A stretch of DNA of 24,735 bases from Pseudomonadota bacterium. Lineage in GTDB: Bacteria > Bdellovibrionota_B > Oligoflexia > Oligoflexales > CAIYRB01. Every line of letters starts with the position of its first letter. Position 1 is the stretch's first letter. Positions 2,096-24,735 of this stretch are shown here, one piece after another. The notes beneath the pieces were generated by a model, which saw only the letters and a list, made by a program, of their open reading frames with translations, had not been told where the DNA came from and searched no databases. Location: contig JANOTL010000023.1 of NCBI GenBank assembly GCA_031416315.1, positions 1-24,735 of the forward strand. Reading direction: 5' to 3'. Position numbers and translations under genes: made by a program.

Positions 2096-3151
2096 CTAGC
2101 CCCCCGCCGCCCCCAGAATCCCCGGCGCATCCTTCTCCACCGGCTCGACCCTCGCCGGCACCAGCTTTCCGTGCACGCCCAAGAAGTCCGAGTACACCCA
2201 GTAGGCGCTCTTGTCCCCGTCGGGCGTCTTCTTGAACACCATCGAATCGAGCTTCTGGCCCTGCTTCTCGAACGTGACCGTCAGGAAGGCCGGCGCGGCG
2301 GCGAGCTTCGCTTCTTCGTCCGGCGAGGCATAGCCAGAGAGGCGGAGCTTCGCGACGCGGTCCATCCAGCCGTCGTAAGACGCCTTCGGCTGAGCGTTCT
2401 CCTCGTCATCGGTCCACAGGAGCTCGCCGTTCTTGTCTCTTTGGAGGTGGGCGAAGCGCTTGGCCTTGGCTCCGTCTGCGCCTTGCGCCAACGCATGCGT
2501 CGCGTCGACCAGCTCGAAGGCGACGATACGGCGGTCGTAGGCGCGGAGGTTGGCCTTCTCGAGGTTGTCCAAGCCCTCGTCGTCGACGAGGAGGACGCGG
2601 GCCCGCGAGGAGTCGCCGTCCTCGAGCGCGAAGCGGGTCTTCGTGCCGTAGCCGCGCTTGCCGAGGAAGAGCTTGTAGCCCTTGCCGTCGCTCGTCTTCA
2701 GCTCGAATACGTCGGTCCGATCCTTCAGGCCGAACTCCTCGAGCTGCTTGTCGTCGACCTTGCCGATCACCCGCAGCGCGTTGAGGGGCGCAAACATCTT
2801 CGTGAACTGCTCGATCTTCTCGTTGGCGAGGAAGCGCTCCTTGATCTCCACCGAAGGCTTCGGCGAAGGAGGCTCCGGCGCGGGCGCTCCCGGCAGGGCG
2901 GGGGGCGGCGGCGGCGGGGTATAAGGCGGCTCCACCTTGTTGAAGTCGACCCAGAAACGGCCGTCCGCGCGCTTCGCGACGGCGACCGTCGTGTCCTTGA
3001 CCTTATAGCTCATCGTCGTGACCTTCTTCGGCTCGAAGGTGACGATCGCGACTTTCTCGGCATCGCCTTCCGAACGCGGCAAAGAGGCCCAGTAGGCGAG
3101 CCCGAGGCTCGCGGCCAGCAAGATGCCATAGAAGCCGACATCACGCCGCAT
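2096..3151 (-). CDS. DUF4340-like periplasmic accessory protein of a Gld-type ABC system
   Basis: N-terminal membrane anchor, LEEFGL...FELKT...YKLFLGK pattern and a poly-Pro insert. Last gene of the gldA/F/G-like run; overlaps the upstream gene by 11 nt. Confidence 0.75.
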   Translation of the reverse strand: MRRDVGFYGILLAASLGLAYWASLPRSEGDAEKVAIVTFEPKKVTTMSYKVKDTTVAVAKRADGRFWVDFNKVEPPYTPPPPPPALPGAPAPEPPSPKPSVEIKERFLANEKIEQFTKMFAPLNALRVIGKVDDKQLEEFGLKDRTDVFELKTSDGKGYKLFLGKRGYGTKTRFALEDGDSSRARVLLVDDEGLDNLEKANLRAYDRRIVAFELVDATHALAQGADGAKAKRFAHLQRDKNGELLWTDDEENAQPKASYDGWMDRVAKLRLSGYASPDEEAKLAAAPAFLTVTFEKQGQKLDSMVFKKTPDGDKSAYWVYSDFLGVHGKLVPARVEPVEKDAPGILGAAGG

Positions 3152-5051
3152 CGCCCGCTCCCTTCTTCGACTTGACCGGATCGCGGTGGTCGCCCTCGCG
3201 CTTGCGGCGCGTCGCGATGAAGCCGGCGCCCAGGACGAGGAGCGGGACCACGACGACGGTGCCGTGGAACCAGATCGCGTCCTCTTTTTTCGTGTGGCGA
3301 ATCTTCACGTCTTCGGCGGTGGCCACCTCGCCCTGGAGCTCCGACTTGCCCACCAGCCATTTCAACGTGTCGACGAAGTAAACGGCGTTCGCCGGATTTT
3401 GCACGACCGCGTCGGCGATCGTCGTCGCGTCGCCGAAAACCGCCACGCGCGACAGGATCCCCGGCTTCTTTTCCTTCGGCTCGGAAGCCACGCCGATGAC
3501 GTAAGCGTCCTTCTTCTCGTCCGGGTCGGCCTTGTAGTTCTTGTTCTTGTCCGGGAAGGAGTCGGGCAGCGTGCGCACCGTCTCCGCGTTCTTCCATTTG
3601 CCGAGCTCCGGCGTCACGCTCCAGTAGCCCGTGCGATAAGCGAGAAGAGCGATGCGCTCGTCGTTGCGGCCTAGGCTGGTCACCGAATCGTGCGTCGTGA
3701 ACACGTTGGTCAGCAAGGACCAGACGTCCGAGGGCGCGTGGTTCGCCGGGTAGTAGTCCTTCTCGTTGCCAATCGGCACCTCGTTGTAGCGCAGCCCCAT
3801 CCCGGCCAGATACTGGCGCAGGGGATCGTCCGACAGGTCGCCCGCCGTCATGCCCGCCGTCTCCTGGGTGCCGCGGTCAACGTCGAGGAGGACGTAAAGG
3901 CTGCCGCCGCGCTCGACGTAAGCCTTGAGCTCAACAACCTCCTCCGGACGAAACGGCTGCGTCGGCCCGACGATCAGCACGGCGGAGGCGTCGTCCGGCC
4001 ATTTCTCCGCCGTGCCCTCGGCCATGCCGAAGAGGCGCGTCGTGTAGTTCTGACTGCGCAGGAAGCCTTCGATCTTGCGGAGCGAGCGCAGAGGATCATC
4101 CCCCGTCTCGCCGACCCAGCTCGCCTCGCCGTGGCCTCGCGTGAAGTAGAGCGTTTTCTTCTCCGAGGCGACCTCGAGAAAGCTCTTCTGAAACTCCTGG
4201 TCCAGCTCTTTCAAGGTTTTACGGGCCTTGGCTATGGTCGTGCCCGTCTCGATGCGCGACTTCTTGCCGCCGACGTCGAAGACGATCTGGCCGTTGCGCG
4301 AGACGCGGTGCTGCTCGGCCGCGGTCGGATTGACGTCCTTGTCGTAAGACTCGAGCTTCACGCGCGGCTCGGCGGCGGCGACCGCCGCGAAGTAGTCCGC
4401 GATGAGCGTGCGCACCTCGTTCCCCGGCGGATAGAAGAGCGCGATGGTGACCGGCTCCTTCACCGACTTCAGGATCGCGAGCGTCGACCCGGAGGGGGTG
4501 CGCGTCTTCAGATAGCTCCAGTCCGCCGCCTCGTTCTTCTTATCGGCGGCGAAGTTGATGCAGATCAAGCTGGCCAGGAAGAGGCCGACGGAGAGCCAAG
4601 CGCCGCCCGAGCGCAAGACGCGCATGGGCTCGGCGTTCGGCCCGCGGCCGCTTTCGCGCAAGGCCCATTCGGTGCCGGCGCCCATGAAAAAGCCGAGTAG
4701 ACAACTGACGAGCCAGGCGGCGAGCAGCACTTTGTGCGCCGCCGTCTCCGGCGCGCCCGTCGGCCCCAGAGACTTGCCGTAGGCGATGTAGAGACCCATG
4801 CCGGCAAGCACGAGGACTTGCCAGAGGGACGCGATCTTGAAGCTCTTGCCTTCGTTCGCGAGCCCTTGATTGCCGACGAAAAAGGCCCGCGCGATCGTCG
4901 CGAGGAGCCCGGCCCCCGCGAGCGCGAAGGCCACGATCCGCAGCTTGGCGTTGTAGGTCTCTGCGCCGAGGTAGCGATCGGCCGCGAAGAGGAGCGCAAA
5001 GCCGACGAGCGTGAGGGGAAGGCGGATCCATCCGCACAGCTTGGTCATCAT
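3141..5051 (-). CDS. GldG-like ABC transporter auxiliary component
   Basis: Motifs LYFTRGHGE, VLIVGPTQPF..EEV..LKAYVERGGSLYVLLD, RVAVFGD, N..YFVDTLKWL; several N-terminal TM helices and one C-terminal TM helix. Confidence 0.88.
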   Translation of the reverse strand: MMTKLCGWIRLPLTLVGFALLFAADRYLGAETYNAKLRIVAFALAGAGLLATIARAFFVGNQGLANEGKSFKIASLWQVLVLAGMGLYIAYGKSLGPTGAPETAAHKVLLAAWLVSCLLGFFMGAGTEWALRESGRGPNAEPMRVLRSGGAWLSVGLFLASLICINFAADKKNEAADWSYLKTRTPSGSTLAILKSVKEPVTIALFYPPGNEVRTLIADYFAAVAAAEPRVKLESYDKDVNPTAAEQHRVSRNGQIVFDVGGKKSRIETGTTIAKARKTLKELDQEFQKSFLEVASEKKTLYFTRGHGEASWVGETGDDPLRSLRKIEGFLRSQNYTTRLFGMAEGTAEKWPDDASAVLIVGPTQPFRPEEVVELKAYVERGGSLYVLLDVDRGTQETAGMTAGDLSDDPLRQYLAGMGLRYNEVPIGNEKDYYPANHAPSDVWSLLTNVFTTHDSVTSLGRNDERIALLAYRTGYWSVTPELGKWKNAETVRTLPDSFPDKNKNYKADPDEKKDAYVIGVASEPKEKKPGILSRVAVFGDATTIADAVVQNPANAVYFVDTLKWLVGKSELQGEVATAEDVKIRHTKKEDAIWFHGTVVVVPLLVLGAGFIATRRKREGDHRDPVKSKKGAGDAA

Positions 5052-5061
5052 CGAGTGGCCC

Positions 5062-5799
5062 TCACCCTTTCCATCGACGTCCCTCGAGCGCCCTTACGGA
5101 GCATTCGAGGAAGAAGACGATGACGCTCAAGTAGTAGACGATGTCCCGCGTGTTCACGATCCCCTGCGAGAAGGGCGTGAAATGCCGGTTATGGATCGAG
5201 AGGTAGCCGAAGAGCTCCTTGAAGGGCGGCTCGACGATGTCGGCGACCATCCAAAGCACGAGCAAGGTCACCGTCAGGAGCGCCCCGGTCACCGCGGCCA
5301 CGAGCTGGTTCGGCGAGATCGTCGAGGCAAAGAGCGAGATCGAGATCGTGGCGCAGCCGATCAGCATCAGGACCAAATAGCCCGAGGCGAGGTGCCCGAT
5401 CGAGACGCGACCGTTGATGAAGATCAGGGCCGGCAGATACAGGGAGAGCGCGTGAATCACCAGCGCGAAGAGCGCGGCCGAGAGGAATTTCCCGTAGACC
5501 AGCTGCCGCTCCGAGATCGGCGACGTGAAGAAGAGGACGATCGTGCCGTTCTGCTTCTCCTCCGCCACGAGCCGCATCGCGAGGAGCACCCCGGCGACCA
5601 TCGAGATCCCGGAAGCGAAGTAGAAGAAGTCGCCAAGGACGTCGGCGGAGAACTTGGCCCCGCCCCCGATCGCGAACGCGTTGAAGAGGAGGCCGTCGAT
5701 GAACAGCGCCGCCGCGCAAATCACGTAGCCCATCCAGGTGGAGAAGAAGGCGCCGAGCTCTCGGCCCGCCACCAGAAAAACCTTATTGATGCCCGTCAC
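5062..5799 (-). CDS. ABC-2 type permease, GldF-like
   Basis: RELGAFF, MRLVAEEKQNGTIVLFFTSPISERQLVYGKFL, F..GIVNTRDIVYYLS; about 6 TM helices; GTGA overlap with the ATPase stop. Confidence 0.92.
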   Translation of the reverse strand: MTGINKVFLVAGRELGAFFSTWMGYVICAAALFIDGLLFNAFAIGGGAKFSADVLGDFFYFASGISMVAGVLLAMRLVAEEKQNGTIVLFFTSPISERQLVYGKFLSAALFALVIHALSLYLPALIFINGRVSIGHLASGYLVLMLIGCATISISLFASTISPNQLVAAVTGALLTVTLLVLWMVADIVEPPFKELFGYLSIHNRHFTPFSQGIVNTRDIVYYLSVIVFFLECSVRALEGRRWKG

Positions 5800-6746
5800 G
5801 GCTTTCCTCCCGCCTCGCGGCCGCCATCCTGACGAATCAGCTTCATGAAGAGTCCCTCGAGCCCGGCCTCTGTCCGCGAGAGCCCGATCAACCCCGCGCC
5901 GGAGCTGACCACGGCCTGCGCCACCTTGCTGCGCACGTCGGCGGAGGTTGTCACGGTGAGGCGCGGCTTGCCAACCACGTCGGAAGTCTTGACGTCGAGC
6001 ACGCCGTCCAGCGAGCGGACCGCCTCGATCAAGCCCGGCGTCAACGCCTCGACGTCGCAGTGCAGGTGCATCGACTGCGCCATGCGTCCCGCGAGCTCCG
6101 CCTCCGAGCCCTCCGCCACGAGCTGCCCCCGATCCACGATCAGAATGCGGTCGCAGGTGCGCGTGATCTCCGAAAGGATGTGGCTCGAAAGGACGACCGT
6201 GTGCCTGCCTTTCAGCGAGGTCACGAGGTCTCTCATCTCAACGATCTGAACGGGATCGAGGCCGTTGATCGGCTCGTCGAGGATGATCACCTTCGGATCG
6301 TGGACGAGGGCCTGCGCGATCCCGACCCGCTGGCGGAAGCCGTGCGACAGCTCGCCGAGGCGCATGCGCGCGACACGCACCGTGTCGGTCTGCCGCATGA
6401 CCTGGTCGACCCGGCCCGAGACCTGGCCCGAGGGCACGTTCTTCAGCTTGGCCACGTAGCGCAGGTAGGACTCGACCCCCATCTCGTCATAGAGAGGCGG
6501 CGTGTCCGGCAGGTAGCCGATGAGCTTGCGGATCTCCTCCGGCTGCTGATCCACGGAGAAGCCCGCGACCCTCGCCGTCCCGGCCGAAGGCAGGAGGAAG
6601 GAGCCCAGGATTTTCAGGATCGTGCTCTTACCGGCGCCGTTCAGCCCGAGAAGGCCGACGATCTCGCCCTGCTTGATGTGGAAGCTGACGTTCGAGATGG
6701 CTTTGTGGCCGGCGTAAACTTTACTGAGGCCAACGGCTTCGATCAT
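5796..6746 (-). CDS. ABC transporter ATP-binding protein, GldA-like
   Basis: Walker A GLNGAGKS, signature LSHGFRQR, Walker B IILDEP, H-loop SSH. Confidence 0.95.
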   Translation of the reverse strand: MIEAVGLSKVYAGHKAISNVSFHIKQGEIVGLLGLNGAGKSTILKILGSFLLPSAGTARVAGFSVDQQPEEIRKLIGYLPDTPPLYDEMGVESYLRYVAKLKNVPSGQVSGRVDQVMRQTDTVRVARMRLGELSHGFRQRVGIAQALVHDPKVIILDEPINGLDPVQIVEMRDLVTSLKGRHTVVLSSHILSEITRTCDRILIVDRGQLVAEGSEAELAGRMAQSMHLHCDVEALTPGLIEAVRSLDGVLDVKTSDVVGKPRLTVTTSADVRSKVAQAVVSSGAGLIGLSRTEAGLEGLFMKLIRQDGGREAGGKP

Positions 6747-12118: not shown

Positions 12119-13021
12119 ATGACCAGGAGAAAGACAGCATCGAACGCCGACGGCCGCGAGCCGCAGCTCTCCCTGGCGGAGATCCAGCGGCTGGCCGGTG
12201 GGATCGACGTGACCGCGATCTTGAGCTATCGCGAATATCTTGCAGCTATCTATGCCGCCTGTCGCGGCAGCGCTGACGAATACTCTTACAACCAATTCGC
12301 GCTCGATCTCGGGTTTTCCTGGTCCAACGTGCTCTGGCTCGTCGTCGACGGCCGCCGCAAGCTGACGCCGCTCACATCGCGTCGGCTGATCGAGACGCTC
12401 GGCCTTAGGGGCCGGCCGCGCCGCTACTTCGACGCGCTCGTCGCGTACAACAACGCACGACGCCCGGACGTGCGCCAGGACGCATTCGAAGAGCTCTTGC
12501 GCCACAAGGCGGCGGGCATCGCCGAGCCGAGCCGCCAGCTCGCGCTCGACTACTTTTCGGAGTGGTACAACCCGGTGCTCCGCGAGTTGACCGCACTGAA
12601 CGACTTCCGCTCCGACGTCGACTGGATCGCCGAACGGCTGGCATTCCCGCTCTTGCCCAATGAGATCAAGCGTGGCCTTCAGCTCCTGGAGAAGCTCGGA
12701 CTCGTGCGCTACGAAGCCGAGGCAGGGCGCCACGTACCGGCCGGCGGCGACGTCCTCCCAGACCGGGACTTCGATACGCTGGCGACGATCCGCCTCCACC
12801 AGCGCATGAGCGAGCTGGCACGGGACGCGATCCCGCGCACCGATGCGCGGCGGCGCGAGATGAATGTGATGACGCTCGCCGTCAACGAGGAGACCGCGAT
12901 GCGAATCGGCCAGATCCTGTACCGAACGTGCGAAGAAATTCTGGCGGTCGAGCGCGCCTGTAAGGACAAGACACAAGTCTACCAAGTCAATCTGCAGCTG
13001 TTTCCACTCACAAATTCCTGA
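12119..13021 (+). CDS. TIGR02147 family / DUF4423 protein, putative HTH regulator
   Basis: YREYL...YSYNQFALDLGF...LVVDGRRKLT, YFSEWYNPVLREL, LLEKLGLV, RREMNVMTLAV, VYQVNLQLFPLT. Confidence 0.9.
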   Translation: MTRRKTASNADGREPQLSLAEIQRLAGGIDVTAILSYREYLAAIYAACRGSADEYSYNQFALDLGFSWSNVLWLVVDGRRKLTPLTSRRLIETLGLRGRPRRYFDALVAYNNARRPDVRQDAFEELLRHKAAGIAEPSRQLALDYFSEWYNPVLRELTALNDFRSDVDWIAERLAFPLLPNEIKRGLQLLEKLGLVRYEAEAGRHVPAGGDVLPDRDFDTLATIRLHQRMSELARDAIPRTDARRREMNVMTLAVNEETAMRIGQILYRTCEEILAVERACKDKTQVYQVNLQLFPLTNS

Positions 13022-13029
13022 GAGAGCGT

Positions 13030-13848
13030 ATGAGCGGCAAATTTAAGCATCTCCTGCGAATGAGCGGCATTACCTCGGCCATGCTCGCCCTAGCCGTGGC
13101 AACGGCGGACTCCGGCTGCGGCACCTGGTCCGGCAATCCCAAGAATCCGAGCCCACCCGCGCCGCAACCGCCGTCGAACGTGCCGGTGATCGAGCCCGTG
13201 TCGGTGACCCTTAGGGCACGCGCCACCTCGGGCGCAGCGCTATCGACAGCCGAGACCATCACAGTCCGTGGCAAGGACGGCGCCTCCGCCGGTACGATCA
13301 CATTGACCCAAGCTCGCGTCGTCTTGAAGGAGATCAGGATCCGCGCGAGCGCTGGCGACGCCGCGATCCGTGAGAAGTTCGAAGGGCCTTACATCGTCGA
13401 CCTCATGAACGACCGCGTCTTACCGGATCCAGGTGCGATCAGCCTCGCGGCGGGCAGTTACTCGCGCGTCGAGCTGAGGCTGCACAAACTCGACAAGGAT
13501 GCCAATGCGGTCGGTGAGAACGACCCGCTCCTCGATCACAGTATCCACCTCGCGGGCACCTATACCGACGCCGAAGGGCGTGCGCGTCCCTTCGAGCTCA
13601 CGCACGACGTCAGTGAGGAGTTCGGGTTGGAGGCGACGACGCCGCTCGACCTCAAGGCCGGTGTCGCGAATGCGGTCGTGCTCGCCTTTCAGCAGTCGAT
13701 CTGGTTCGATCTTACGGGCGCGGAAGTCGACCTCGGCGACATCCTCGGCGATGTCGTTCTCGACGAGGACGCCGACGACTCAGCCAAGAAAGTACGCGAC
13801 CGCATCAAGGAAAACCTTAAACGCTCGGCGCGCCCGGAGCGCGAATGA
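13030..13848 (+). CDS. Putative lipoprotein, DUF4382-like beta-rich domain
   Basis: Signal peptide ending DSGC, then GTWSGNP and a Pro-rich linker; ARVVLKEIRI, GPYIVDL, ISLAAGSYSRVELRL. Starts 8 nt after the TIGR02147 stop. Confidence 0.7.
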   Translation: MSGKFKHLLRMSGITSAMLALAVATADSGCGTWSGNPKNPSPPAPQPPSNVPVIEPVSVTLRARATSGAALSTAETITVRGKDGASAGTITLTQARVVLKEIRIRASAGDAAIREKFEGPYIVDLMNDRVLPDPGAISLAAGSYSRVELRLHKLDKDANAVGENDPLLDHSIHLAGTYTDAEGRARPFELTHDVSEEFGLEATTPLDLKAGVANAVVLAFQQSIWFDLTGAEVDLGDILGDVVLDEDADDSAKKVRDRIKENLKRSARPERE

Positions 13849-14020
13849 GCGTGTCGGATGAAAGAGGCTAGCTGTTCTTAGTCAGATGATCGTGGAATTT
13901 CATGCGAGGTGAACCGACAGGTGCGACAGATCCAAAGCCTTGCGCCAAGGACCTCTTGCGACCCGCCCATCCGCATGGAAACATCGAAGAAAACTGATTC
14001 GTCAATTGAAAGGGAGTGTC

Positions 14021-14611
14021 ATGATTTCTACGTTTTCTAGGTATCAGCGTCTTCTGTTTTGGGGTCTTGGCGTGATCCTCCTTCCGCTTGCCGGCTGTGG
14101 CGCGGACAAAGACGAGGAGAAAGCCTCGAGCACCGGCAATGCCTCCGTCATGGTCAAGATGTCGCCAGCCGCGGCCGGAGCCGCACTGACGGCGGTGAGC
14201 GACGCCAAGTTGTGCTTCAAGCGACTGCGGTTCAAGCTCGCGGACGAGGTGACCGCCGATCCGGCAACGAACAGCGACAACATTGATTTCAACATCGGCG
14301 AAAAGACTCTTGGATCGGCCGACACCGACCTCGGGACCATTTCGCTGGCGCCCAACACCTACAAGCGCGTCGAATTCGACCTCGAAAAGGACTGCAACGG
14401 CTACAGCGTCAAGTTCACGAATGCGAACGGGACGTTCATGACGGACCAACGACTGACCATCAAGTTCAAAGGCGTGTTTACCGTCGACGAGGCTACCGAG
14501 ACGGTCAAGCTGGGGATCGCCGCCGTCATGACCGCCTTAGACGGCATCCCGAGTGGAGCGGGCGACAAGGAGATCAAGGAAGCGCTCGACAATGTTAGCG
14601 GCACATTCTAG
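14021..14611 (+). CDS. Lipoprotein, distant relative of the upstream lipoprotein
   Basis: AGGGAG RBS, lipobox LAGC. AKLCFKRLRFK and GTISLAPNTYKRVEFDLEK parallel ARVVLKEIRIR and GAISLAAGSYSRVELRLHK. Confidence 0.8.
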   Translation: MISTFSRYQRLLFWGLGVILLPLAGCGADKDEEKASSTGNASVMVKMSPAAAGAALTAVSDAKLCFKRLRFKLADEVTADPATNSDNIDFNIGEKTLGSADTDLGTISLAPNTYKRVEFDLEKDCNGYSVKFTNANGTFMTDQRLTIKFKGVFTVDEATETVKLGIAAVMTALDGIPSGAGDKEIKEALDNVSGTF

Positions 14612-15405: not shown

Positions 15406-15466
15406 AAGATAACATTTTAATAGAAATTGTCAATATTTCATGATTATTCTAAAGTCATTATGAAAT
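15406..15466. promoter_or_regulatory. Overlapping divergent sigma70 promoters with an operator-like inverted repeat
   Basis: Minus strand: TTGACA(15433-15428)-16 nt-TATCTT with extended TG. Plus strand: TTGTCA(15427-15432)-17 nt-TAAAGT. Inverted repeat ATTTCATGAT(15435-15444)/ATTATGAAAT(15457-15466) matches 9/10. Confidence 0.6.
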
Positions 15467-15546: not shown

Positions 15547-16449
15547 GTGCAGATTAATTCACTAATATTATTGTCTATTATTGCGATGCTCGACGGGCGC
15601 GGCCGGAAGGTCGTGCTGGAGGCTCCGCCGCAGCGGATCGTCTCCGGCTCGCTCGCCAGCGACGAAATCCTCCTCGCACTTTTCGCCAGCTCGGGCCAAT
15701 CCGGACGCCTCGCCGCCGTGTCGAGCCTCGCCGACGACCCGCGCTACAGCAACGTCGTCGCCGCCGCCAAAACCGTGAAGGGCCGCTTCGGCGAAGGCCT
15801 CGAGACGGCCTTGGCGCTGAAGCCCGACCTCGCCGTGCTCGCCAGCTTCAACAAGCCGGAGACCATCGACCGCCTCGAGAAGGCGCAGGTGCGCTGCTTC
15901 GTCCTCGGCGGCTTCACCACCCTGGACGAGATCGCGGCCAACGTGACCGCGCTCGGCGAGCTGACGCAACTGAAGAAAGACGCCGGCGCCCTGAACGCCG
16001 TCTTCGCGAAGGCCCGGATGGCCGCGTGGGCCGGCGCGGTGCGCCTCCCCCGCCGGCCCAAGGTCCTAGGCTACCTCGGCGACGCCGCCGGCAATGGCGC
16101 CTTGACGCTGGCGGCGCGCGGGAGCCTCTTCGACGCCCTGATCGAGGAGGCCGGCGGCGAGAACCTCGCGAGCTCGCTCGGCCTCACCGGCTGGCCGACC
16201 GTCTCCGCCGAGGTCTTGGCCGGGCTCGCGCCCGACGTCGTCGTCACCGGCGGGGACGGGACGCCGGAGGCGCTGCGCCAGACTCTGCAGAATGCGCCTG
16301 GATGGAAGGCGATGAAGAGCCTCGCCCGCGCGAAGATGATCGTCGTCCCCGACCGCGAGCTCGGCGCGACGTCGCCTTACGTCGCGTCGGCCCTGACCAA
16401 GATTTCGCAGGGGCTCGCACAGGAGATCGCGCCGGGGCTTTCGCCGTGA
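15547..16449 (+). CDS. ABC substrate-binding protein, helical-backbone (BtuF/FecB/HmuT class)
   Basis: DGRGRKVVLEAPPQRIVS, ETALALKPDLAVL, LIEEAGGENLA, VSAEVLAGLAPDVVV. Confidence 0.9.
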   Translation: MQINSLILLSIIAMLDGRGRKVVLEAPPQRIVSGSLASDEILLALFASSGQSGRLAAVSSLADDPRYSNVVAAAKTVKGRFGEGLETALALKPDLAVLASFNKPETIDRLEKAQVRCFVLGGFTTLDEIAANVTALGELTQLKKDAGALNAVFAKARMAAWAGAVRLPRRPKVLGYLGDAAGNGALTLAARGSLFDALIEEAGGENLASSLGLTGWPTVSAEVLAGLAPDVVVTGGDGTPEALRQTLQNAPGWKAMKSLARAKMIVVPDRELGATSPYVASALTKISQGLAQEIAPGLSP

Positions 16450-17420
16450 TGCGCTTCGGACTCGCGCTTTTGGCGCTCCTCGCGGCGCTCCTCGCGGCGC
16501 TGCAGGTCGGCGCGGCGGACTACGGCTTACAGGACGTCCTGAAGGACGAGACCGCGCGCACGGTGATGCTCGAGATCCGCCTGCCGAGGCTCATCGTCGC
16601 CGCGCTCGCCGGGGCCGCGCTTTCGGCCGCAGGGGTCTTGAGCCAAGGCCTCTTTCGCAATCCGCTCGCGAGCCCCTCGATCCTCGGAACGGAGGCCGGC
16701 GCGAGCCTCGCGGCGGCTTTCGCGTTTCACGCCGGGCTCGCGTTCGCGGCCTGGTGGACCTTACCGCTCGCCGCGTTCGGCGGCGCCCTCGCCTCGACCG
16801 CGGTCCTCTTCGCCTTGGCGCGGCGCGGTGAACGGAACCGGCCGACGCCGCTCGCGACCCTGCTTTTGGCGGGCTTTGCGCTCAACGCCCTGCTCGGCGC
16901 CGGGACCTCGCTCTTATTGTCCCTCCTCCTCGAGGATTTCCAGCGCTCGTCGGCGGCCCTGCACTGGCTCCTCGGCGGCTTCGCCGGCAAGGGCGCCGAG
17001 CACATCCCCACGATCGCCCTGCCGGCAGTCCTCGGCTTCGCCCTCGCCGTGCGCCTCGCGCCGCGGCTCGACGCGCTGTCCTTGGGCGAGGACGTCGCGC
17101 AAAGCCTCGCCGTCGACCTCGCCTCGATGCGCCGCGCGACGTTCGGCGCCGTCGCGCTCCTCGTCGGCGGCGCTGCCGCCGTCTCCGGCGCCGTTCCGTT
17201 CGTCGGCTTGGTCGTCCCGCATCTGACGCGGAGTATGGCCGGCCCGCGGCACGGCACGCTCCTCGTCTTAAGCACCGTCAACGGCGCGACCTTGATGCTC
17301 CTCTGCGACCTCGTCGCGCGGACGATCCGATCGCCACGAGAGCTCGAGGTCGGCGTGATCACCGCGCTGCTCGGCGCGCCTTTCTTCCTCGCCCTCCTCC
17401 TGCGGAAGGATCGCCCGTGA
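16449..17420 (+). CDS. FecCD/BtuC family permease
   Basis: IRLPRL, QGLFRNPLASPSILG, LSLGEDVAQSL, FVGLVVPH, EVGVITALLGAPFFL. Start is ATG 16449 or GTG 16446, overlapping the binding-protein stop. Confidence 0.95.
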   Translation: MRFGLALLALLAALLAALQVGAADYGLQDVLKDETARTVMLEIRLPRLIVAALAGAALSAAGVLSQGLFRNPLASPSILGTEAGASLAAAFAFHAGLAFAAWWTLPLAAFGGALASTAVLFALARRGERNRPTPLATLLLAGFALNALLGAGTSLLLSLLLEDFQRSSAALHWLLGGFAGKGAEHIPTIALPAVLGFALAVRLAPRLDALSLGEDVAQSLAVDLASMRRATFGAVALLVGGAAAVSGAVPFVGLVVPHLTRSMAGPRHGTLLVLSTVNGATLMLLCDLVARTIRSPRELEVGVITALLGAPFFLALLLRKDRP

Positions 17421-18184
17421 TCGCCATACAGGCCTCCGATCTGGTCGTGCGTCTCGGAGCTCGCGCCGTCTTGGAGAGGGTCGACGCGAGCTTCGCGCGC
17501 GGTACGGTGACGGCGCTCGTCGGGCCGAACGGCGCGGGCAAGACGACCTTCCTGCGCACGCTCGCGGGATTGACGCGCGCCAGCGCGGGGAGCGTCGAGA
17601 TCGAGGGCTCGAACGTCGCGACGATGACGGCGCAGGCGCGCGCGCTGCGCCTGGCCTGGGTGCCGACGCCCGAGCCGCCGCCCTTTCCTTACACGGTGCT
17701 GGAGACCGTGAAGCTCGGGCGCTTCGCGCGGCACGAGGGCAGACCGCGTGCCGCCGACGAGGAAGCCGCGCTGCGCTCCCTCGCGGCCGTGGGCTTGCCG
17801 ACCTTCGCGTCCCGCCTCGTCACGGAGCTCTCCGGCGGCGAGCTCGCCCGCGTCGCCGTCGCCCGCGGGCTCGCGGCGGAGACGGACCTCGTTCTCCTCG
17901 ACGAGCCGACCGCGTCGCTCGACGTCGCCGCGGCGCTGCGCCTCCTGATCTTACTGCGCCAGCTCGCCGCGGCGGGACGGACGATCGTCCTCTCGCTGCA
18001 CGATTTGAGCGTCGCCTATCGCTACGCCGATCACGTCGTCATGCTCGGGGCCGGGCGCGTCGTCGCGGCCGGCCCGCCACGAGACGCCTTGACTCCCGCG
18101 AGCTTACGCGCGGCTTTTGGCGTCTCGGCGCAGATCGCGCGCACTGCGGACGGCCGGGAGGCGCTGTTTTTCGACCCGGAATGA
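17417..18184 (+). CDS. ABC ATP-binding protein (FecE/BtuD/HmuV class)
   Basis: GPNGAGKT, LSGGE, LLDEPT, SLHDL; GTGA overlap with the permease. Confidence 0.95.
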   Translation: MIAIQASDLVVRLGARAVLERVDASFARGTVTALVGPNGAGKTTFLRTLAGLTRASAGSVEIEGSNVATMTAQARALRLAWVPTPEPPPFPYTVLETVKLGRFARHEGRPRAADEEAALRSLAAVGLPTFASRLVTELSGGELARVAVARGLAAETDLVLLDEPTASLDVAAALRLLILLRQLAAAGRTIVLSLHDLSVAYRYADHVVMLGAGRVVAAGPPRDALTPASLRAAFGVSAQIARTADGREALFFDPE

Positions 18185-19816: not shown

Positions 19817-19861
19817 GACGGCCCGGCATCCCGTACAATGGATGCCGGGCCGTCGTCTTTT
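19817..19861 (+). terminator. Strong GC hairpin, probable intrinsic terminator
   Basis: Perfect 15-bp stem GACGGCCCGGCATCC / GGATGCCGGGCCGTC with an 8-nt loop, followed by GTCTTTT. Confidence 0.75.
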
Positions 19862-19882
19862 ACCTCCCCGGGGTTTCCTCCC

Positions 19883-21049
19883 ATGCCTCTGATCGTCGAC
19901 CTTGCGCGCCTCGAGGACATCGAGAAGCTGCTGCGCCTCTATTACTCGGTGTACGGCGCGACGTATCCCCTGCCGCTCGGCTCCGACCAGGCGGTGATGC
20001 GGCGGATGATCGAAGCCTCCGAGACCGTCTACTGGCTGGTGACGCGCGACTGCGATACCGGCGCGGTCGTGGGCTCGGCTGTCTTCGAGACCGATCCTTA
20101 CAACAAGATCGTCAAGCTCGAGGGGGTCGTCGTCGACCCGAAGATGCGCAACCGCAGCGTCGCCAACCTGATGATCGTCGAGGGCACCAAGCGCTTTCTC
20201 GGGCCGGAGGCGCCGTTCAACTCGCTCTACGCTACGACACGCACCGTCTCCGTCGGCCCGCAGCTCATGTGTCTGAAGAACGGCTTCTTGCCGCTTGGCA
20301 TTTTCCCGAACGCGCACAAGCTCACGCAGTACGAGTCGGTGACGCTGCTTGCGCGCTTTCGCGACGGGATCCTGGCGCGCCGCGAGCCGGTCTTCGAGAT
20401 CCCCGCCAAGATCGCGCCGCTCCTCGCCATCACCGAAGCGACGCTGAAGGCGCCGCCGCGCGACTACAAGATCATCCAGCCGCGCGTGCCCACCACCGAG
20501 GAGCGCAGCGAGCGGCGGACGCCGCAGGAGTTCGAGTTCCTTTACGCGCCGAGCTACGTCGAGCGCCGGTACCTCGAGACCTTCCCGGACCGTATGGAAC
20601 GCTTCTACCCGTTCCACACGCCGAACCTGATGATCGCGTCAAAAGACGGCAAAGTGGAGATCTACGCTTTCCTGAGCAAGTCCGATCGTTACTGCACCAT
20701 CTGCGCCTGCACGGTCCCGATCACGACCCTGGAAGGTCGCCTCGGCGGCCTCTTCGATCAGCTCGCCGACTACGGCGCCTCCTACGTCGAGACGCTCGTG
20801 CCCCTCGGCCATCGCACGACGCTGGAGGCGCTCCTCGAGTTCCAGTTCGTCGGCTCCGCCATCTACCCCGCGATGCGCGAGCGCGAAGGCAAGGTCGAGG
20901 ACATCGTCGTCATGTCGCGGACGATGGAGCCCTTGAACTTCCGCGGCATGGCCATCGACAAATCCTTCAAGCCCTATATCGATCAGTACGTCGACTCCTG
21001 GAAGCAGATGTATCTAGACGTGCTCGAGGTCTTCAATGATCCCAAGTGA
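19883..21049 (+). CDS. GNAT-family acyltransferase, probably tandem GNAT folds
   Basis: LARLEDIEKLLRLY..VY...YP, motif A-like VVVDPKMRNRSVANLM, KNGFLPLGIFP. A second GNAT-like ending follows (LLEFQFVGSAIYP...EDIVVMSR). The alternative ATG 19838 lies inside the hairpin. Confidence 0.78.
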   Translation: MPLIVDLARLEDIEKLLRLYYSVYGATYPLPLGSDQAVMRRMIEASETVYWLVTRDCDTGAVVGSAVFETDPYNKIVKLEGVVVDPKMRNRSVANLMIVEGTKRFLGPEAPFNSLYATTRTVSVGPQLMCLKNGFLPLGIFPNAHKLTQYESVTLLARFRDGILARREPVFEIPAKIAPLLAITEATLKAPPRDYKIIQPRVPTTEERSERRTPQEFEFLYAPSYVERRYLETFPDRMERFYPFHTPNLMIASKDGKVEIYAFLSKSDRYCTICACTVPITTLEGRLGGLFDQLADYGASYVETLVPLGHRTTLEALLEFQFVGSAIYPAMREREGKVEDIVVMSRTMEPLNFRGMAIDKSFKPYIDQYVDSWKQMYLDVLEVFNDPK

Positions 21050-22172
21050 GCCCCTTCGCGTCCCCGACCCCGTGCGACTCGCAGCCGTGCAGAAGCTCTG
21101 CGACCTGAAGGCGCCTTACGCCCCGAGTCCCAAGATCTCGGCCTTGTTCCAAGCGGCGATGACGGAATCAGTTGCCTGGCACGCCGCGCGCTCCCCCTTC
21201 TACGCCAAGCTCCTAGCGGCCGAGGGCGGCATTCCCTTCGTCGCGGCCAACTTCTTCAAGAGCCACGAGGTGCTCTCGATCCCGAAGGCGGAGGTCTTCC
21301 TCCACCTCACCTCCTCCGGCACGACGGGCCAGAAGTCGCAGATCTTCTTCGACGAGTGGACGATCAAGAGCGCCCAGCGCATGGTCGACTTCATCTTCGC
21401 GCACTACGGCTGGCACACGCCGGACGAGCCCGCGAACTATCTTCTCTACAGCTACGAGCCGAAACCCGGCTTTAAGGTCGGCACGTCCTATACCGACAAT
21501 TTCCTGCTGAAGTACGCGCGCCCCAATCGCGTCGAGTACGCGCTGAAAAACACTGGCGACGGCCGCCACGAGTTCGACGGCTTCGGCGTCGTTAAGGCAC
21601 TGCAGGAGTTCGGCGAAGAAGGCCTGCCGGTGCGCATCCTGGGCTTTCCGGCCTTCATGCATTTCACGCTCGAGCGCATGGCGGCCATGGGTGTCGCGCC
21701 CTTGAAATTCTCGGAGAAGAGCCTCGTCTTCTTCGGCGGCGGCTGGAAGGGCAACGCCGACAGGGAAATCAAGAAGCGCGATCTTTATGCGGACATGGAG
21801 CGGCGTCTGGGCATCCCCGACGAGCGCATCCGCGACGGCTTCGGCTCGGTCGAGCACTGCATTCCCTACGTCGAATGCAAGGCGCACGAGTTCCACGTGC
21901 CGATCTGGTCGGAGGTGGTGATCCGCGACGTGACGACGCTTGCGCCCGTGGGCTACGGCAAGCCGGGATACCTCACCTTCATCTCGCCTTACATCACCTC
22001 GGTGCCGGCGCAGCACGTGCTGATGCACGATCTCGCCGAGCTCCATCCCGCCGCCTCGTGCCGTTGCGGGCTGCCGACACCTTTTTTCAGGATCCTCGGC
22101 CGCGCCGGCCTGAGCCGCAACAAGAGTTGCGCCGTCGCCGCCGCCGAGCTGCTCGGGAAGGGCGCGTCATGA
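21036..22172 (+). CDS. LuxE-like acyl-protein synthetase
   Basis: FFKSHEVLS, LTSSGTTGQKSQIFFD, ILGFPAF, GGGWKG, IRDGFGSVEH, HVP.W..V.IRD, and FRILGRAG....SC with the C-terminal acyl-accepting Cys (22128-22130). Overlaps the GNAT gene by 14 nt. Confidence 0.92.
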   Translation: MIPSEPLRVPDPVRLAAVQKLCDLKAPYAPSPKISALFQAAMTESVAWHAARSPFYAKLLAAEGGIPFVAANFFKSHEVLSIPKAEVFLHLTSSGTTGQKSQIFFDEWTIKSAQRMVDFIFAHYGWHTPDEPANYLLYSYEPKPGFKVGTSYTDNFLLKYARPNRVEYALKNTGDGRHEFDGFGVVKALQEFGEEGLPVRILGFPAFMHFTLERMAAMGVAPLKFSEKSLVFFGGGWKGNADREIKKRDLYADMERRLGIPDERIRDGFGSVEHCIPYVECKAHEFHVPIWSEVVIRDVTTLAPVGYGKPGYLTFISPYITSVPAQHVLMHDLAELHPAASCRCGLPTPFFRILGRAGLSRNKSCAVAAAELLGKGAS

Positions 22173-24715
22173 GCATGCTGCACTACGTGCGTGGAGCCTG
22201 GATGGGCGACGCCGAGATGAAGGCCGCGCTCGCGACGCTTGAAGACGACGCCGGGGCGGCGCTCGGCGAGCCGCTCCCGACCGAAGCCGTCCTCGCCGCG
22301 GCCGAGGCGCTCGGGCGCTCGCTCCTTGGCGAGGACGAGACCGCGCGCGCCCTGCAGCGCGTGCTCGTGGTCGAGCACCATCAAACCGAGGCGGAGGCCG
22401 CAGACACCCTCAAGGAAATGGCGGCCTTCCTAAGCCGCGCCGAGCTGGAGAAAAAGCTCGTCCGCGAGCTCGGCTCGAAGGAGCCGCTCGCCGCCGTCCG
22501 CTCGGGCTTTCGCGAGGCCCATTTCGAAAGCTGGGCGCCGCTCGGGACGCTCGTCCACGTCGCGCCCACCAACGCGGCTTCGGTCGGCGCCTTGAGCGTC
22601 TTAGAGGGCCTCCTCGTCGGCAACTTCAACGTGCTGAAGATCGGCGGCCAGGATGGTACCTTCGCCGCGCACTTCCTCGCCACGCTCGCCGCGCGCGAGC
22701 CGACCGGCGCGCTGGCGCGGCGCGTCGTCGCCGTGCGCGTCTCGTCGAAGGATCAGGAGACGATGGCACGCCTCGTCGCGGTCGCCGACGGCATCGCCGC
22801 CTGGGGCAGCGAGGAGGCCGTCGCCGGCATCCGCAAGCTCGCGCCGCCGCATGCCAGATTCGTCGACTGGGGGCCGAAAATCTCGTTCGCCTACTTGACG
22901 CGCGCCGCGGCCCTGAATGCCGAGGTCGTGCAGAAGCTCGCCGAGGAGATCGTCCTCGTCGAGCAGCAGGCTTGCTCGAGCCCCCAAGTCGCCTACGTCG
23001 ACCTCGATCCCAAGGCCGAAAAAGACGCCTTGGTAGCCTTCGCCGAGCGCCTCGCCGCGGCGCTGTTGGAGCTCTCGCGAACACGGCCAGCCCCCGAGCT
23101 CGACCGCGCCGAGCGCGCCGAGATCACCAACGTCGTGCAGGTGACGCGCCTCGAGCAGTATCTCGAAGACGGCCTCACGCACGTCATCGACGGCTCGCGC
23201 GACGGCTACCGCGTGCTCGTCGACTTTCGCTCCGCCTTGCGCGCTTCCCCCTTGAATCGCACGATCTGGATCAAGGGCCTGCCGCGCGCCGAGATCGTCC
23301 GCACCTTGCGGCCGATGCGCGCCTATTTGCAGACCGTCGGCCTCGCCGCGCCGGCGGAGGATTACCCCGCGCTAGCGGAAGCTTTCGTCCGCGCCGGCGC
23401 CCTGCGCGTGGCCGAGATCGGATCGATGCTCGGCAGTTACGCCGGCGAGCCGCACGACGGCGTCTATGCCTTGCCCCGATATGCGCGGCGAATCAGCTAC
23501 CAGCCGGGCGAGAGCATGGCGGGCGTCTCGAGCCTGGCGCAACTGGCGGCGCCCGCGGCGCCCGGCCTCGCCATGGCGGAAAAGCCGGTGCTGACGAAGG
23601 CGGGCTTTCAGGCGCACGAGGTCGCGGCCGAGCACTCGCACCTCTTTTTCAAGAGCGGCGGCAGCTCCGGCGAGCCGAAGCTTTCGATCTTCACTTACGA
23701 CGACTACCACCGGCACATGGCGCTCGCGGCGCGCGGCCTCTACGCGGCGGGGCTCGATCCGCGACACGATCGCTGCATGAACCTCTTTTTCGCCGGTGGG
23801 CTTTACGGCGGCTTCGTCAGCTTCTTCACCATCCTCGAGATGATGCGCGCCGTCCAGCTGCCGATGGCGGCCAACATGGACATGGAAGACGTCGCGCAGG
23901 TCCTGGTGAAACAGCGTGTGAACGTGCTGCTCGGCATGCCGAGCTATATCCTCCAGCTCTTCCATCGCAACGACGAGTTGTTGGCGCGAGAGCGCGTCGT
24001 CAAGAAGATCTTCTACGGCGGCGAGCATTTCAACGAGGCGCAACAGAAGCATTTTCGCGAGCGCTACGGCGTCGAGCTGATCCGCTCGGCGACTTACGGC
24101 AGCGTCGACGCGGGGCCGCTCGGCTACCAATGCCGCAGCTGCGAGGGCGTGACGCATCACCTGCATTCCGAGCTGCATTCGCTAGAGATCCTGGAGCTGG
24201 AGAAGGACGCGCCCGTCGGCAAGGGCGAGGTCGGCCGCCTGGTCTTCACCTCGCGCGTCCGCGAGGGACAGGACCTAGCGCGCTACGAGATCGGAGACGT
24301 CGGGCGCTGGGTGCCGCGCCGCTGCGCAAGCGGCATCGCCGCGCCGCGCTTCGAGCTCCTCGGTCGCACGGGCGACGTGTTCCGCATCGGCAGCGAGTTC
24401 TTCAACTACCGGAAGATGACCAAGATCTTGGCCGACCATTGCGCCTACTCCGGCGAGGTGCAGCTCGAGCTCTTCTCGGAGTCCGCGCGCGAGGAGATTC
24501 GCGTGCTCGTAGATCGCGAGGGGCTCGACCTGATGGCCATGCGGCGCGCCTTGCTCGATCACTACGGCGAGCTCTCCACCGTCGTCGAGGACGAAGGGCT
24601 TCTGTCTTTGACGGTAAAGGTCGTGCTGGGAGAAGAGATGGAGCGCACGAAGGGCAGCGGCAAGCTTCGCGCCGTCGTTGACCGACGCCTTCCCGGGAAA
24701 GGGGTCCTGCGGTGA
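22169..24715 (+). CDS. Fusion of LuxC-like acyl-CoA reductase and PaaK-like adenylate-forming CoA ligase (848 aa)
   Basis: N-half: PLGTLVHVAPTN, AWGSEEA, WGPKISF, EQQACSSPQ (Cys269), PHDG. C-half: FKSGGSSGEPK, FYGGEHF, TYGSVDAG, RYEIGDVG, LLGRTGD. ATGA overlap with the LuxE-like gene. Confidence 0.92.
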   Translation: MSMLHYVRGAWMGDAEMKAALATLEDDAGAALGEPLPTEAVLAAAEALGRSLLGEDETARALQRVLVVEHHQTEAEAADTLKEMAAFLSRAELEKKLVRELGSKEPLAAVRSGFREAHFESWAPLGTLVHVAPTNAASVGALSVLEGLLVGNFNVLKIGGQDGTFAAHFLATLAAREPTGALARRVVAVRVSSKDQETMARLVAVADGIAAWGSEEAVAGIRKLAPPHARFVDWGPKISFAYLTRAAALNAEVVQKLAEEIVLVEQQACSSPQVAYVDLDPKAEKDALVAFAERLAAALLELSRTRPAPELDRAERAEITNVVQVTRLEQYLEDGLTHVIDGSRDGYRVLVDFRSALRASPLNRTIWIKGLPRAEIVRTLRPMRAYLQTVGLAAPAEDYPALAEAFVRAGALRVAEIGSMLGSYAGEPHDGVYALPRYARRISYQPGESMAGVSSLAQLAAPAAPGLAMAEKPVLTKAGFQAHEVAAEHSHLFFKSGGSSGEPKLSIFTYDDYHRHMALAARGLYAAGLDPRHDRCMNLFFAGGLYGGFVSFFTILEMMRAVQLPMAANMDMEDVAQVLVKQRVNVLLGMPSYILQLFHRNDELLARERVVKKIFYGGEHFNEAQQKHFRERYGVELIRSATYGSVDAGPLGYQCRSCEGVTHHLHSELHSLEILELEKDAPVGKGEVGRLVFTSRVREGQDLARYEIGDVGRWVPRRCASGIAAPRFELLGRTGDVFRIGSEFFNYRKMTKILADHCAYSGEVQLELFSESAREEIRVLVDREGLDLMAMRRALLDHYGELSTVVEDEGLLSLTVKVVLGEEMERTKGSGKLRAVVDRRLPGKGVLR

Positions 24716-24735
24716 TCTTCGCGCTCGCCGAGATC
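24712..24735 (+). CDS. Possible start of a further coupled gene, truncated by the window end
   Basis: GTGA overlap with the preceding stop; reads MIFALAEI open to the end. Only 8 codons are visible. Confidence 0.35.

Follow-up and report, generated by a model that had tools for sequence, protein, structure and literature searches.

The window analysed here is the whole 24,735-nt contig JANOTL010000023.1 (C23) of assembly GCA_031416315.1, from a bacterium of the Oligoflexales lineage. It carries on its forward strand a gene in which a LuxC-type reductase is joined to a PaaK-type adenylating domain and which we regard as the counterpart of leupB in the leupeptin (leup) operon. The fusion is a single frame without stops (22169..24715, 848 residues), and its start overlaps the stop of the preceding gene in an ATGA. 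Its N-terminal domain (22169..23488) has the aldehyde dehydrogenase (ALDH) fold of LuxC; the Pfam LuxC match covers residues 36–440 (nt 22274–23488, E 1.5e-83), and the catalytic C269 (nt 22973–22975) sits in the motif QQACSSPQ at residues 266–273. The PaaK-type domain (23582..24694) gave a sub-threshold Pfam AMP-binding match at residues 483–693 (E 1.7e-6) and features the P-loop SGGSSGEPK at residues 496–504 (nt 23654–23680) together with D647, D710, R733 and the catalytic K832 (nt 24662–24664). Alignment with 116 window-like and 49 LeupB-like homologues showed that all catalytic residues of the ligase domain are intact; C269 is kept in every one of these proteins and in 87 of 87 alignment rows.

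A search of solved structures paired residues 480–840 with PaaK-type ligases and residues 123–445 with LuxC (7XC6). The AlphaFold model, built from a 36-row alignment, has folds matching PaaK-type ligases (4RVN, 2Y27) and LuxC (7XC6), with a predicted local distance difference test score (pLDDT) of 88.2 and a predicted template modelling score (pTM) of 0.82. An initial annotation of this DNA had described the uninterrupted fusion with both motifs in these places, and had proposed structure prediction and a survey of homologues as checks; its description agrees with our results. The Ala/Pro linker that it placed between the domains needs correction: a connecting segment exists (residues 441–476), but it is short and constrained in length, never below 33 residues and with a median of 34–35 across the 116 window-like and 49 LeupB-like proteins. 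The adjoining K477 is invariant (36 of 36 rows), and within residues 441–490 pLDDT dropped below 70 only in the block 461–470. That the fusion is an assembly artefact, a doubt raised by the same annotation, is ruled out by hundreds of full-length homologues and by an independent contig across the junction. A protein search with the fusion matched 574 of 8000 scored candidates, and the 119 non-self matches listed share 46–58% identity with it, most of them over 95–99% of the query. The contig, from a second, independent study (X2), is 1321 nt long, about 90% identical to the window, and spans 22541–23857.

Databases label such fusions merely as "acyl-CoA reductase". Scores against the NCBIfam models mark a distant relative only, with 65.5 bits for LuxC (cut-off 750) and 71.1 bits for the PaaK model TIGR02155 (cut-off 646.3). 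Pfam detected neither a PP-binding nor a NAD_binding_4 domain, and LuxC precedes AMP-binding. The reductase domain of carboxylic acid reductases (CARs) has a short-chain-dehydrogenase fold. The window fusion differs from these adenylation–thiolation–reductase enzymes in its ALDH-fold reductase, in its reversed domain order and in the missing phosphopantetheine carrier, as domain and fold matches both indicate, and in that activation is likely left to a separate protein. Common to both would be a multi-domain chain and the net conversion of acid, ATP and NADPH to an aldehyde, as CARs are described in the available text of PMC12041015. The initial view of a carrier-free LuxC-type reductase joined to a PaaK-like adenylating domain, with an architecture unlike that of CARs, is thus supported.

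The gene belongs to a five-gene operon in the order GNAT, LuxE-like, fusion, PaaK-like ligase and major facilitator superfamily (MFS) exporter, in which every gene overlaps the next. The GNAT-fold acyltransferase (19838..21049, forward strand, up to 403 residues, Acetyltransf_1 E 8.5e-4) is the positional counterpart of LeupD, from another subfamily. A hairpin of 15 bp with a T run behind it (19817..19854, forward strand) overlaps its first possible start and likely terminates the gene upstream; the GNAT start would hence be the ATG at 19883. In agreement with a later start, the window GNAT aligns with the LeupD profile from residue 18. A promoter scan upstream of the operon found nothing convincing. 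The LuxE-like acyl-protein synthetase, counterpart of LeupA (21036..22172, forward strand), contains GGGWK238, R356 and the C-terminal C365 (nt 22128–22130). The stand-alone PaaK-like ligase, counterpart of LeupC, begins with a GTG over the fusion stop (24712..24735, forward strand) and continues on contig C114 to position 1262, and the exporter (Pfam MFS) occupies C114 1259–2515. The final 20 nt of the window are the first 20 nt of C114, and single contigs cover this join, one of 10,702 nt in X1, a run possibly from the window's own source sample, and one of 2,768 nt in X2. The fusion is therefore not an orphan gene at a contig end, since its operon carries on into C114. Over 19845–24735, X1 and the window disagree in a single letter (at 24317, in codon 717, X1 has G and the window C).

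Kinship with the leupeptin operon

The operon leupABCD is described, in the available parts of three papers, as making leupeptin by a route that does not involve a nonribosomal peptide synthetase (NRPS), and occurs in Klebsiella michiganensis/oxytoca, Photorhabdus and Xenorhabdus (MIBiG BGC0002135; PMC8283571, PMC11480411, PMC10548850). Primers reported for leupA and leupB give a 1235-bp product (PMC8283571). The forward primer was found at eight metagenome loci, and at the one studied (L101) the reverse primer is found at a distance of 1235 nt. Because the published primer pair thus yields the published product, we take L101 as the leup locus of K. michiganensis. Its gene order is MFS, LuxE, LuxC::AMP-binding, ligase and GNAT, and the LeupB fusion encoded there matches K. 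michiganensis proteins at 100% identity.

Compared with this reference, the window fusion is 39% identical to LeupB over 771 residues (E 9e-164) and has the same pair of Pfam domains; the LuxE-like protein is 54% identical to LeupA over 371 residues and the stand-alone ligase 40% to LeupC over 422 residues. Among the five Leup proteins, LeupA, LeupB and LeupC are each the best match of their window counterparts. The two ligases can also be told apart. A quick tree of 32 selected ligase domains separates the fused from the stand-alone ones: the fused domain of the window falls with that of LeupB in a clade of 15 rows (Shimodaira–Hasegawa-like approximate likelihood ratio test, SH-aLRT, 100), and the stand-alone ligase with LeupC in a clade of 14 rows (SH-aLRT 98). 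Consistent with this, the fused domain is 42% identical to the LeupB domain versus 27% to LeupC. For the acyltransferase, a profile–profile comparison with a LeupD profile of nine rows, free of window-type GNATs, gave 97.8% over 182 columns at 18% identity.

Both operons hence have a LuxC::PaaK-like fusion with LeupA directly upstream and LeupC directly downstream, as well as a GNAT and an MFS gene. Every catalytic residue is shared, and motifs beside the active sites of the ligases and the LuxE-like protein are common to the window and Klebsiella. They differ in gene order, which is GNAT-A-B-C-MFS in the window and MFS-A-B-C-D in Klebsiella; in the acyltransferase, about 400 residues long versus 305 for LeupD and similar at profile level only; in the exporter, which is of another subfamily; and in one zinc ligand of the fused ligase, a Ser in the window. 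Judged from sequence, the window fusion is a relative of LeupB that belongs to its family and lies outside the clade tested. Its architecture, taken as new in the initial annotation, is that of LeupB, and the type of pathway is likewise already known. Our literature search, in which the primary leup paper was not included, returned the name leupB in Klebsiella typing papers and no report on leup operons outside the gammaproteobacteria. A run of leupA/B/C-like genes was also seen on a conjugative plasmid of Salmonella enterica (CP053580.1, L097:3878–8755), inside the Klebsiella LeupB clade.

Supply of the reductase and proposed product

The Lux fatty acid reductase (7XC6, PMC9157457) resembles the window system in its ALDH-fold reductase with one catalytic Cys and in its adenylating partner, whose GGGWK, Arg and C-terminal Cys arm are found in the LuxE-like protein. 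In the Lux complex, LuxE is reported to adenylate the acid with Lys238 and Arg355, to load Cys364 and to hand the acyl group to Cys296 of LuxC (PMC9157457). The corresponding K238, R356 and C365 of the window protein are conserved in all 87 alignment rows, with equivalents in Photobacterium phosphoreum LuxE (PMC9157457). The differences lie in an identity of only about 20%, in the ligase domain that extends the window reductase, and in the substrate, likely a peptide acid. The LuxE-like protein scores 62.2 bits against an NCBIfam LuxE cut-off of 550. No luxAB occurs in the operon, and the genome holds one weak luciferase-family match on contig C7; luxD was not searched. With LuxC and LuxE scores below their cut-offs and no luciferase in the operon, bioluminescence is ruled out.

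The fused ligase, for its part, shares the short ANL fold, the P-loop, the terminal Lys and a Cys/His/Cys/Cys type of zinc site with NatL2, ClxA/ClxC and AjiA1, and NatL2- and ClxA/ClxC-type ligases were among its fold matches. These enzymes are only about 18–20% identical to it, act on aryl acids and have no fused reductase. NatL2 is described as a PaaK-type ligase that forms an ester and ClxA/ClxC as linking aminobenzoates, without a CoA thioester, in the portions available of PMC7204872 and PMC9400959.

Gene neighbourhoods help to assign the roles of these units. Our counts use the best 80 of at least 556 matches, 63 of them in actinomycetes and 17 elsewhere. A LuxE-like gene stands beside the fusion at 80 of the 80 loci, the 17 non-actinomycete ones included, and no fusion without it was found either among these or among 29 fused loci from the genus Streptomyces. 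The reductase itself does occur without a PaaK-type ligase. At L116 a LuxE-like protein and an unfused reductase that keeps its catalytic Cys (48% and 41% identical to the window proteins) have no PaaK-type ligase within 15 kb; at L151 such a pair lies beside an NRPS, with no PaaK-type ligase within 19 kb; and L117 is a distant third unfused case with a LuxE-like gene. Since the reductase is found without a PaaK-type ligase but the fusion at no locus checked without the LuxE-like gene, we favour the latter as acyl donor: supplying the reductase is most likely the task of the LuxE-like protein, and that of the fused ligase likely the formation of a peptide bond.

Two of these loci deserve description of their own. 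L116 (2198–8586) belongs to a plasmid of Streptomyces europaeiscabiei (NZ_CP109155.1) that also encodes there a metallo-beta-lactamase-fold protein, an MbnB/TglH/ChrH (DUF692) enzyme and, on the opposite strand, a YcaO-like protein. A 53-residue open reading frame contains four (D/N)(D/E)FPFR repeats that all end in Arg, and this one locus has the appearance of a pathway to a ribosomally made peptide argininal. At L151 (157–11722, G528:C24), the LuxE-like/reductase pair converges on an NRPS ending in condensation, adenylation and thiolation domains and on a beta-lactamase-family gene, and possibly provides a separate aldehyde-forming step for the NRPS product. A seemingly short reductase, P0247, ends in a broken P-loop and was left out of the unfused count.

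From gene content and order, leupA/B/C homology and conserved catalytic residues, we propose with a probability of about 0.75 that the five-gene, leupeptin-type operon produces a protease inhibitor, a short N-acyl peptide aldehyde, and exports it, with neither NRPS nor carrier protein. The GNAT would use an acyl-CoA to N-acylate the first amino acid. Two amide bonds would then be formed via acyl-AMP, without CoA, one by the fused PaaK-type domain and the other by the LeupC-like ligase that stands alone. The LuxE-like protein would adenylate the finished peptide acid, load it onto its C365 and pass it to C269 of the LuxC domain, where NADPH would reduce the thioester to the aldehyde for export by the MFS protein. 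Three adenylating units would fit a tripeptide aldehyde, with two amide bonds and one acid activation. A tripeptide aldehyde with a basic last residue is the probable product; perhaps, at odds well below even, it is leupeptin itself. An aldehyde product and a possible relay through LuxE, both already suggested in the initial annotation, were hence sound ideas.

Several points weigh against this proposal, the zinc site treated below among them. BLAST found no match between the window GNAT or MFS and Klebsiella LeupD or its MFS, and the best Pfam match of the exporter is MFS_3 in the window and MFS_1 in Klebsiella. A quick tree of selected fusions had 60 rows, of which 30 were loci, 29 proteins and one the window. 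Klebsiella LeupB falls there in a clade of 16 rows on a long branch (SH-aLRT 100, branch 1.36), the experimentally tested gammaproteobacterial one, and the window is excluded from it. The window operon has no precursor-supply gene that would fix the substrate, and the co-occurrence loci are rich in kin and not independent, given their many related actinomycetes. In favour of a leupeptin-like product are the active-site motifs in common with Klebsiella and the genes of a known producer. Streptomyces roseus ATCC 31245, described as making leupeptin in the available text, carries a complete window-type five-gene cassette (L069:3007–10502) at 40–61% identity to the window genes; the GNAT is 40% identical, and the window types of acyltransferase and exporter are shared. 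On the other side, a preprint, in the part available, attributes the leupeptin of S. roseus to an NRPS cluster on the basis of an insertion mutant and heterologous expression (10.1101/2020.10.26.356543), so that the link to the cassette may be coincidence. The terms of this NRPS claim are absent from the main text of the journal version, as far as that text is available. The S. roseus genome has one candidate for an NRPS-linked reductase-like domain beside an NRPS gene, and an NRPS route may thus operate there. Older enzymology of S. roseus, which we do not count as evidence, reportedly had free leupeptin acid reduced with ATP and NADPH.

The zinc site of the fused ligase consists of C655, H664 and C719, with Ser721 (24329–24331) in the place of the fourth Cys. 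Position 721 is Cys in 116 of 116 window-like and 48 of 49 LeupB-like homologues, and in NatL2, with the ligands C248/H254/C308/C310, zinc is reported as essential (PMC7204872, available text). The Ser codon is present in X1 as well, which may be the window's source. The pathway could thus be the same with an impaired fused ligase, only the LeupC-like ligase working and an acyl-dipeptide aldehyde resulting. We regard this as very unlikely, as all catalytic residues are retained, the frame is unbroken, the genes of the operon still overlap, one Klebsiella-group homologue also has Ser at this position, and C658, near C655, may substitute as the fourth ligand. Alternatively, the fused domain might adenylate an acid, with or without CoA, for its own LuxC domain, which would make the fusion a carrier-less CAR and leave the LuxE-like protein to make an amide or to serve a second substrate. 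An old and widespread fusion, a junction of constrained length and a confident two-domain model suit such an enzyme. Activation of an acid for the adjoining reductase, as initially suggested, is nevertheless at odds with a LuxE-like gene at every fusion checked, with the ligase-free pairs at L116 and L151, and with the invariance of the LuxE Cys arm known for delivery to LuxC (PMC9157457). This reading is unlikely; that reduction needs only LuxE, listed at the outset as a refutation, is judged from sequence the likelier case.

Fatty or aryl acids had also been named as substrates, and a non-luminescent, lux-like cassette could reduce them to a lipid aldehyde or yield an aryl amide instead of a peptide aldehyde. 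The best solved-structure matches are indeed the fatty acid reductase proteins LuxC and LuxE and aryl-acid ligases, and the tested LeupB clade does not include the window. Against this stand the scores far below the LuxC, LuxE and PaaK cut-offs, the lack of a luciferase gene in the operon, the active-site motifs common with Klebsiella, and identities to the Leup proteins of 39–54%, about twice the 20–24% or so seen with fatty- and aryl-acid enzymes. We hence consider such substrates quite unlikely and retain the peptide aldehyde as the favoured product.

Distribution and implications

An alignment scan of GTDB contigs returned at least 556 true matches among at least 599 stretches; scanning genome contigs with the single protein gave none. 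In the window's phylum the fusion is patchy: at E 1e-60 it was found in nine of 131 genomes, one of which is the window's own, and at this threshold none of the 11 other genomes of the window's family carries it; a genome of the same genus has only a 31% copy. At the 80 best loci, a second ligase is present in 78, with both misses cut by contig ends, and a GNAT in 79, of window type in 73 and LeupD-like in six; the 17 non-actinomycete loci all have both genes. In the genus Streptomyces, 47 of 401 genomes contain the reductase, and the 30 loci listed all have a LuxE-like gene, with a fused reductase in 29 and an unfused one in the remaining locus.

Some loci depart from the window arrangement. 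L152 and L153 (G439:C48, G507:C14) have four genes, MFS, GNAT, LuxE-like and fusion, with no stand-alone LeupC-like ligase within 11–18 kb, an arrangement that would suit a dipeptide aldehyde; the reductase is present a second time in both genomes. L109 (G025:C15:27000–42000) is a larger, divergent cluster with a fusion at 27%, a pair of LuxE-like genes and GNATs of two types; its genome carries a window-type operon as well. In Bacteroidota and Sulfuricellaceae (L008, L010, L012, L028, L058, L068), the LeupD-like GNAT is C-terminal in a frame of about 500 residues, which therefore has an extra N-terminal domain. One relative's fusion is split over three frames (L112, G089:C44), as a frameshifted or mis-assembled copy.

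Elsewhere in the window, divergent sigma-70-like sites at 15406–15455 (three found versus 0.4 expected) precede an operon for ABC-type uptake that includes a periplasmic binding protein (15547–18184), presumably of the iron-siderophore or B12 type from its motifs. A TIGR02147-family gene followed by two lipoprotein-like frames was seen at 12119–14611. From motifs only, we take 113–1150 on the reverse strand to be a flagellin-like gene and 2096–6746, also reverse, to be a Gld-like ABC export set.

We may tentatively speculate further, in a view we hold as doubtful, that the window operon stands for a large sister lineage of leup with an acyltransferase and exporter of its own, making new peptide aldehydes in Oligoflexales-like bacteria, Melainabacteria, Elusimicrobia and Streptomyces. 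The cassette would then be the true source of S. roseus leupeptin, and the LuxE-like/LuxC pair a portable, carrier-free peptide-acid reductase that was also grafted onto ribosomal-peptide and NRPS clusters.

If the proposed pathway is correct, carrier-free synthesis of peptide aldehydes would extend to an uncultured bacterium from freshwater sediment. The comparison suggests a division of labour for it, with the LuxE-like protein feeding the reductase and the PaaK-type domains making the amides. It also raises the question whether the cassette seen across Streptomyces genomes makes the leupeptin of S. roseus. Finally, an enzyme that reduces peptide acids without a carrier would be convenient for the biocatalytic preparation of aldehyde protease inhibitors.

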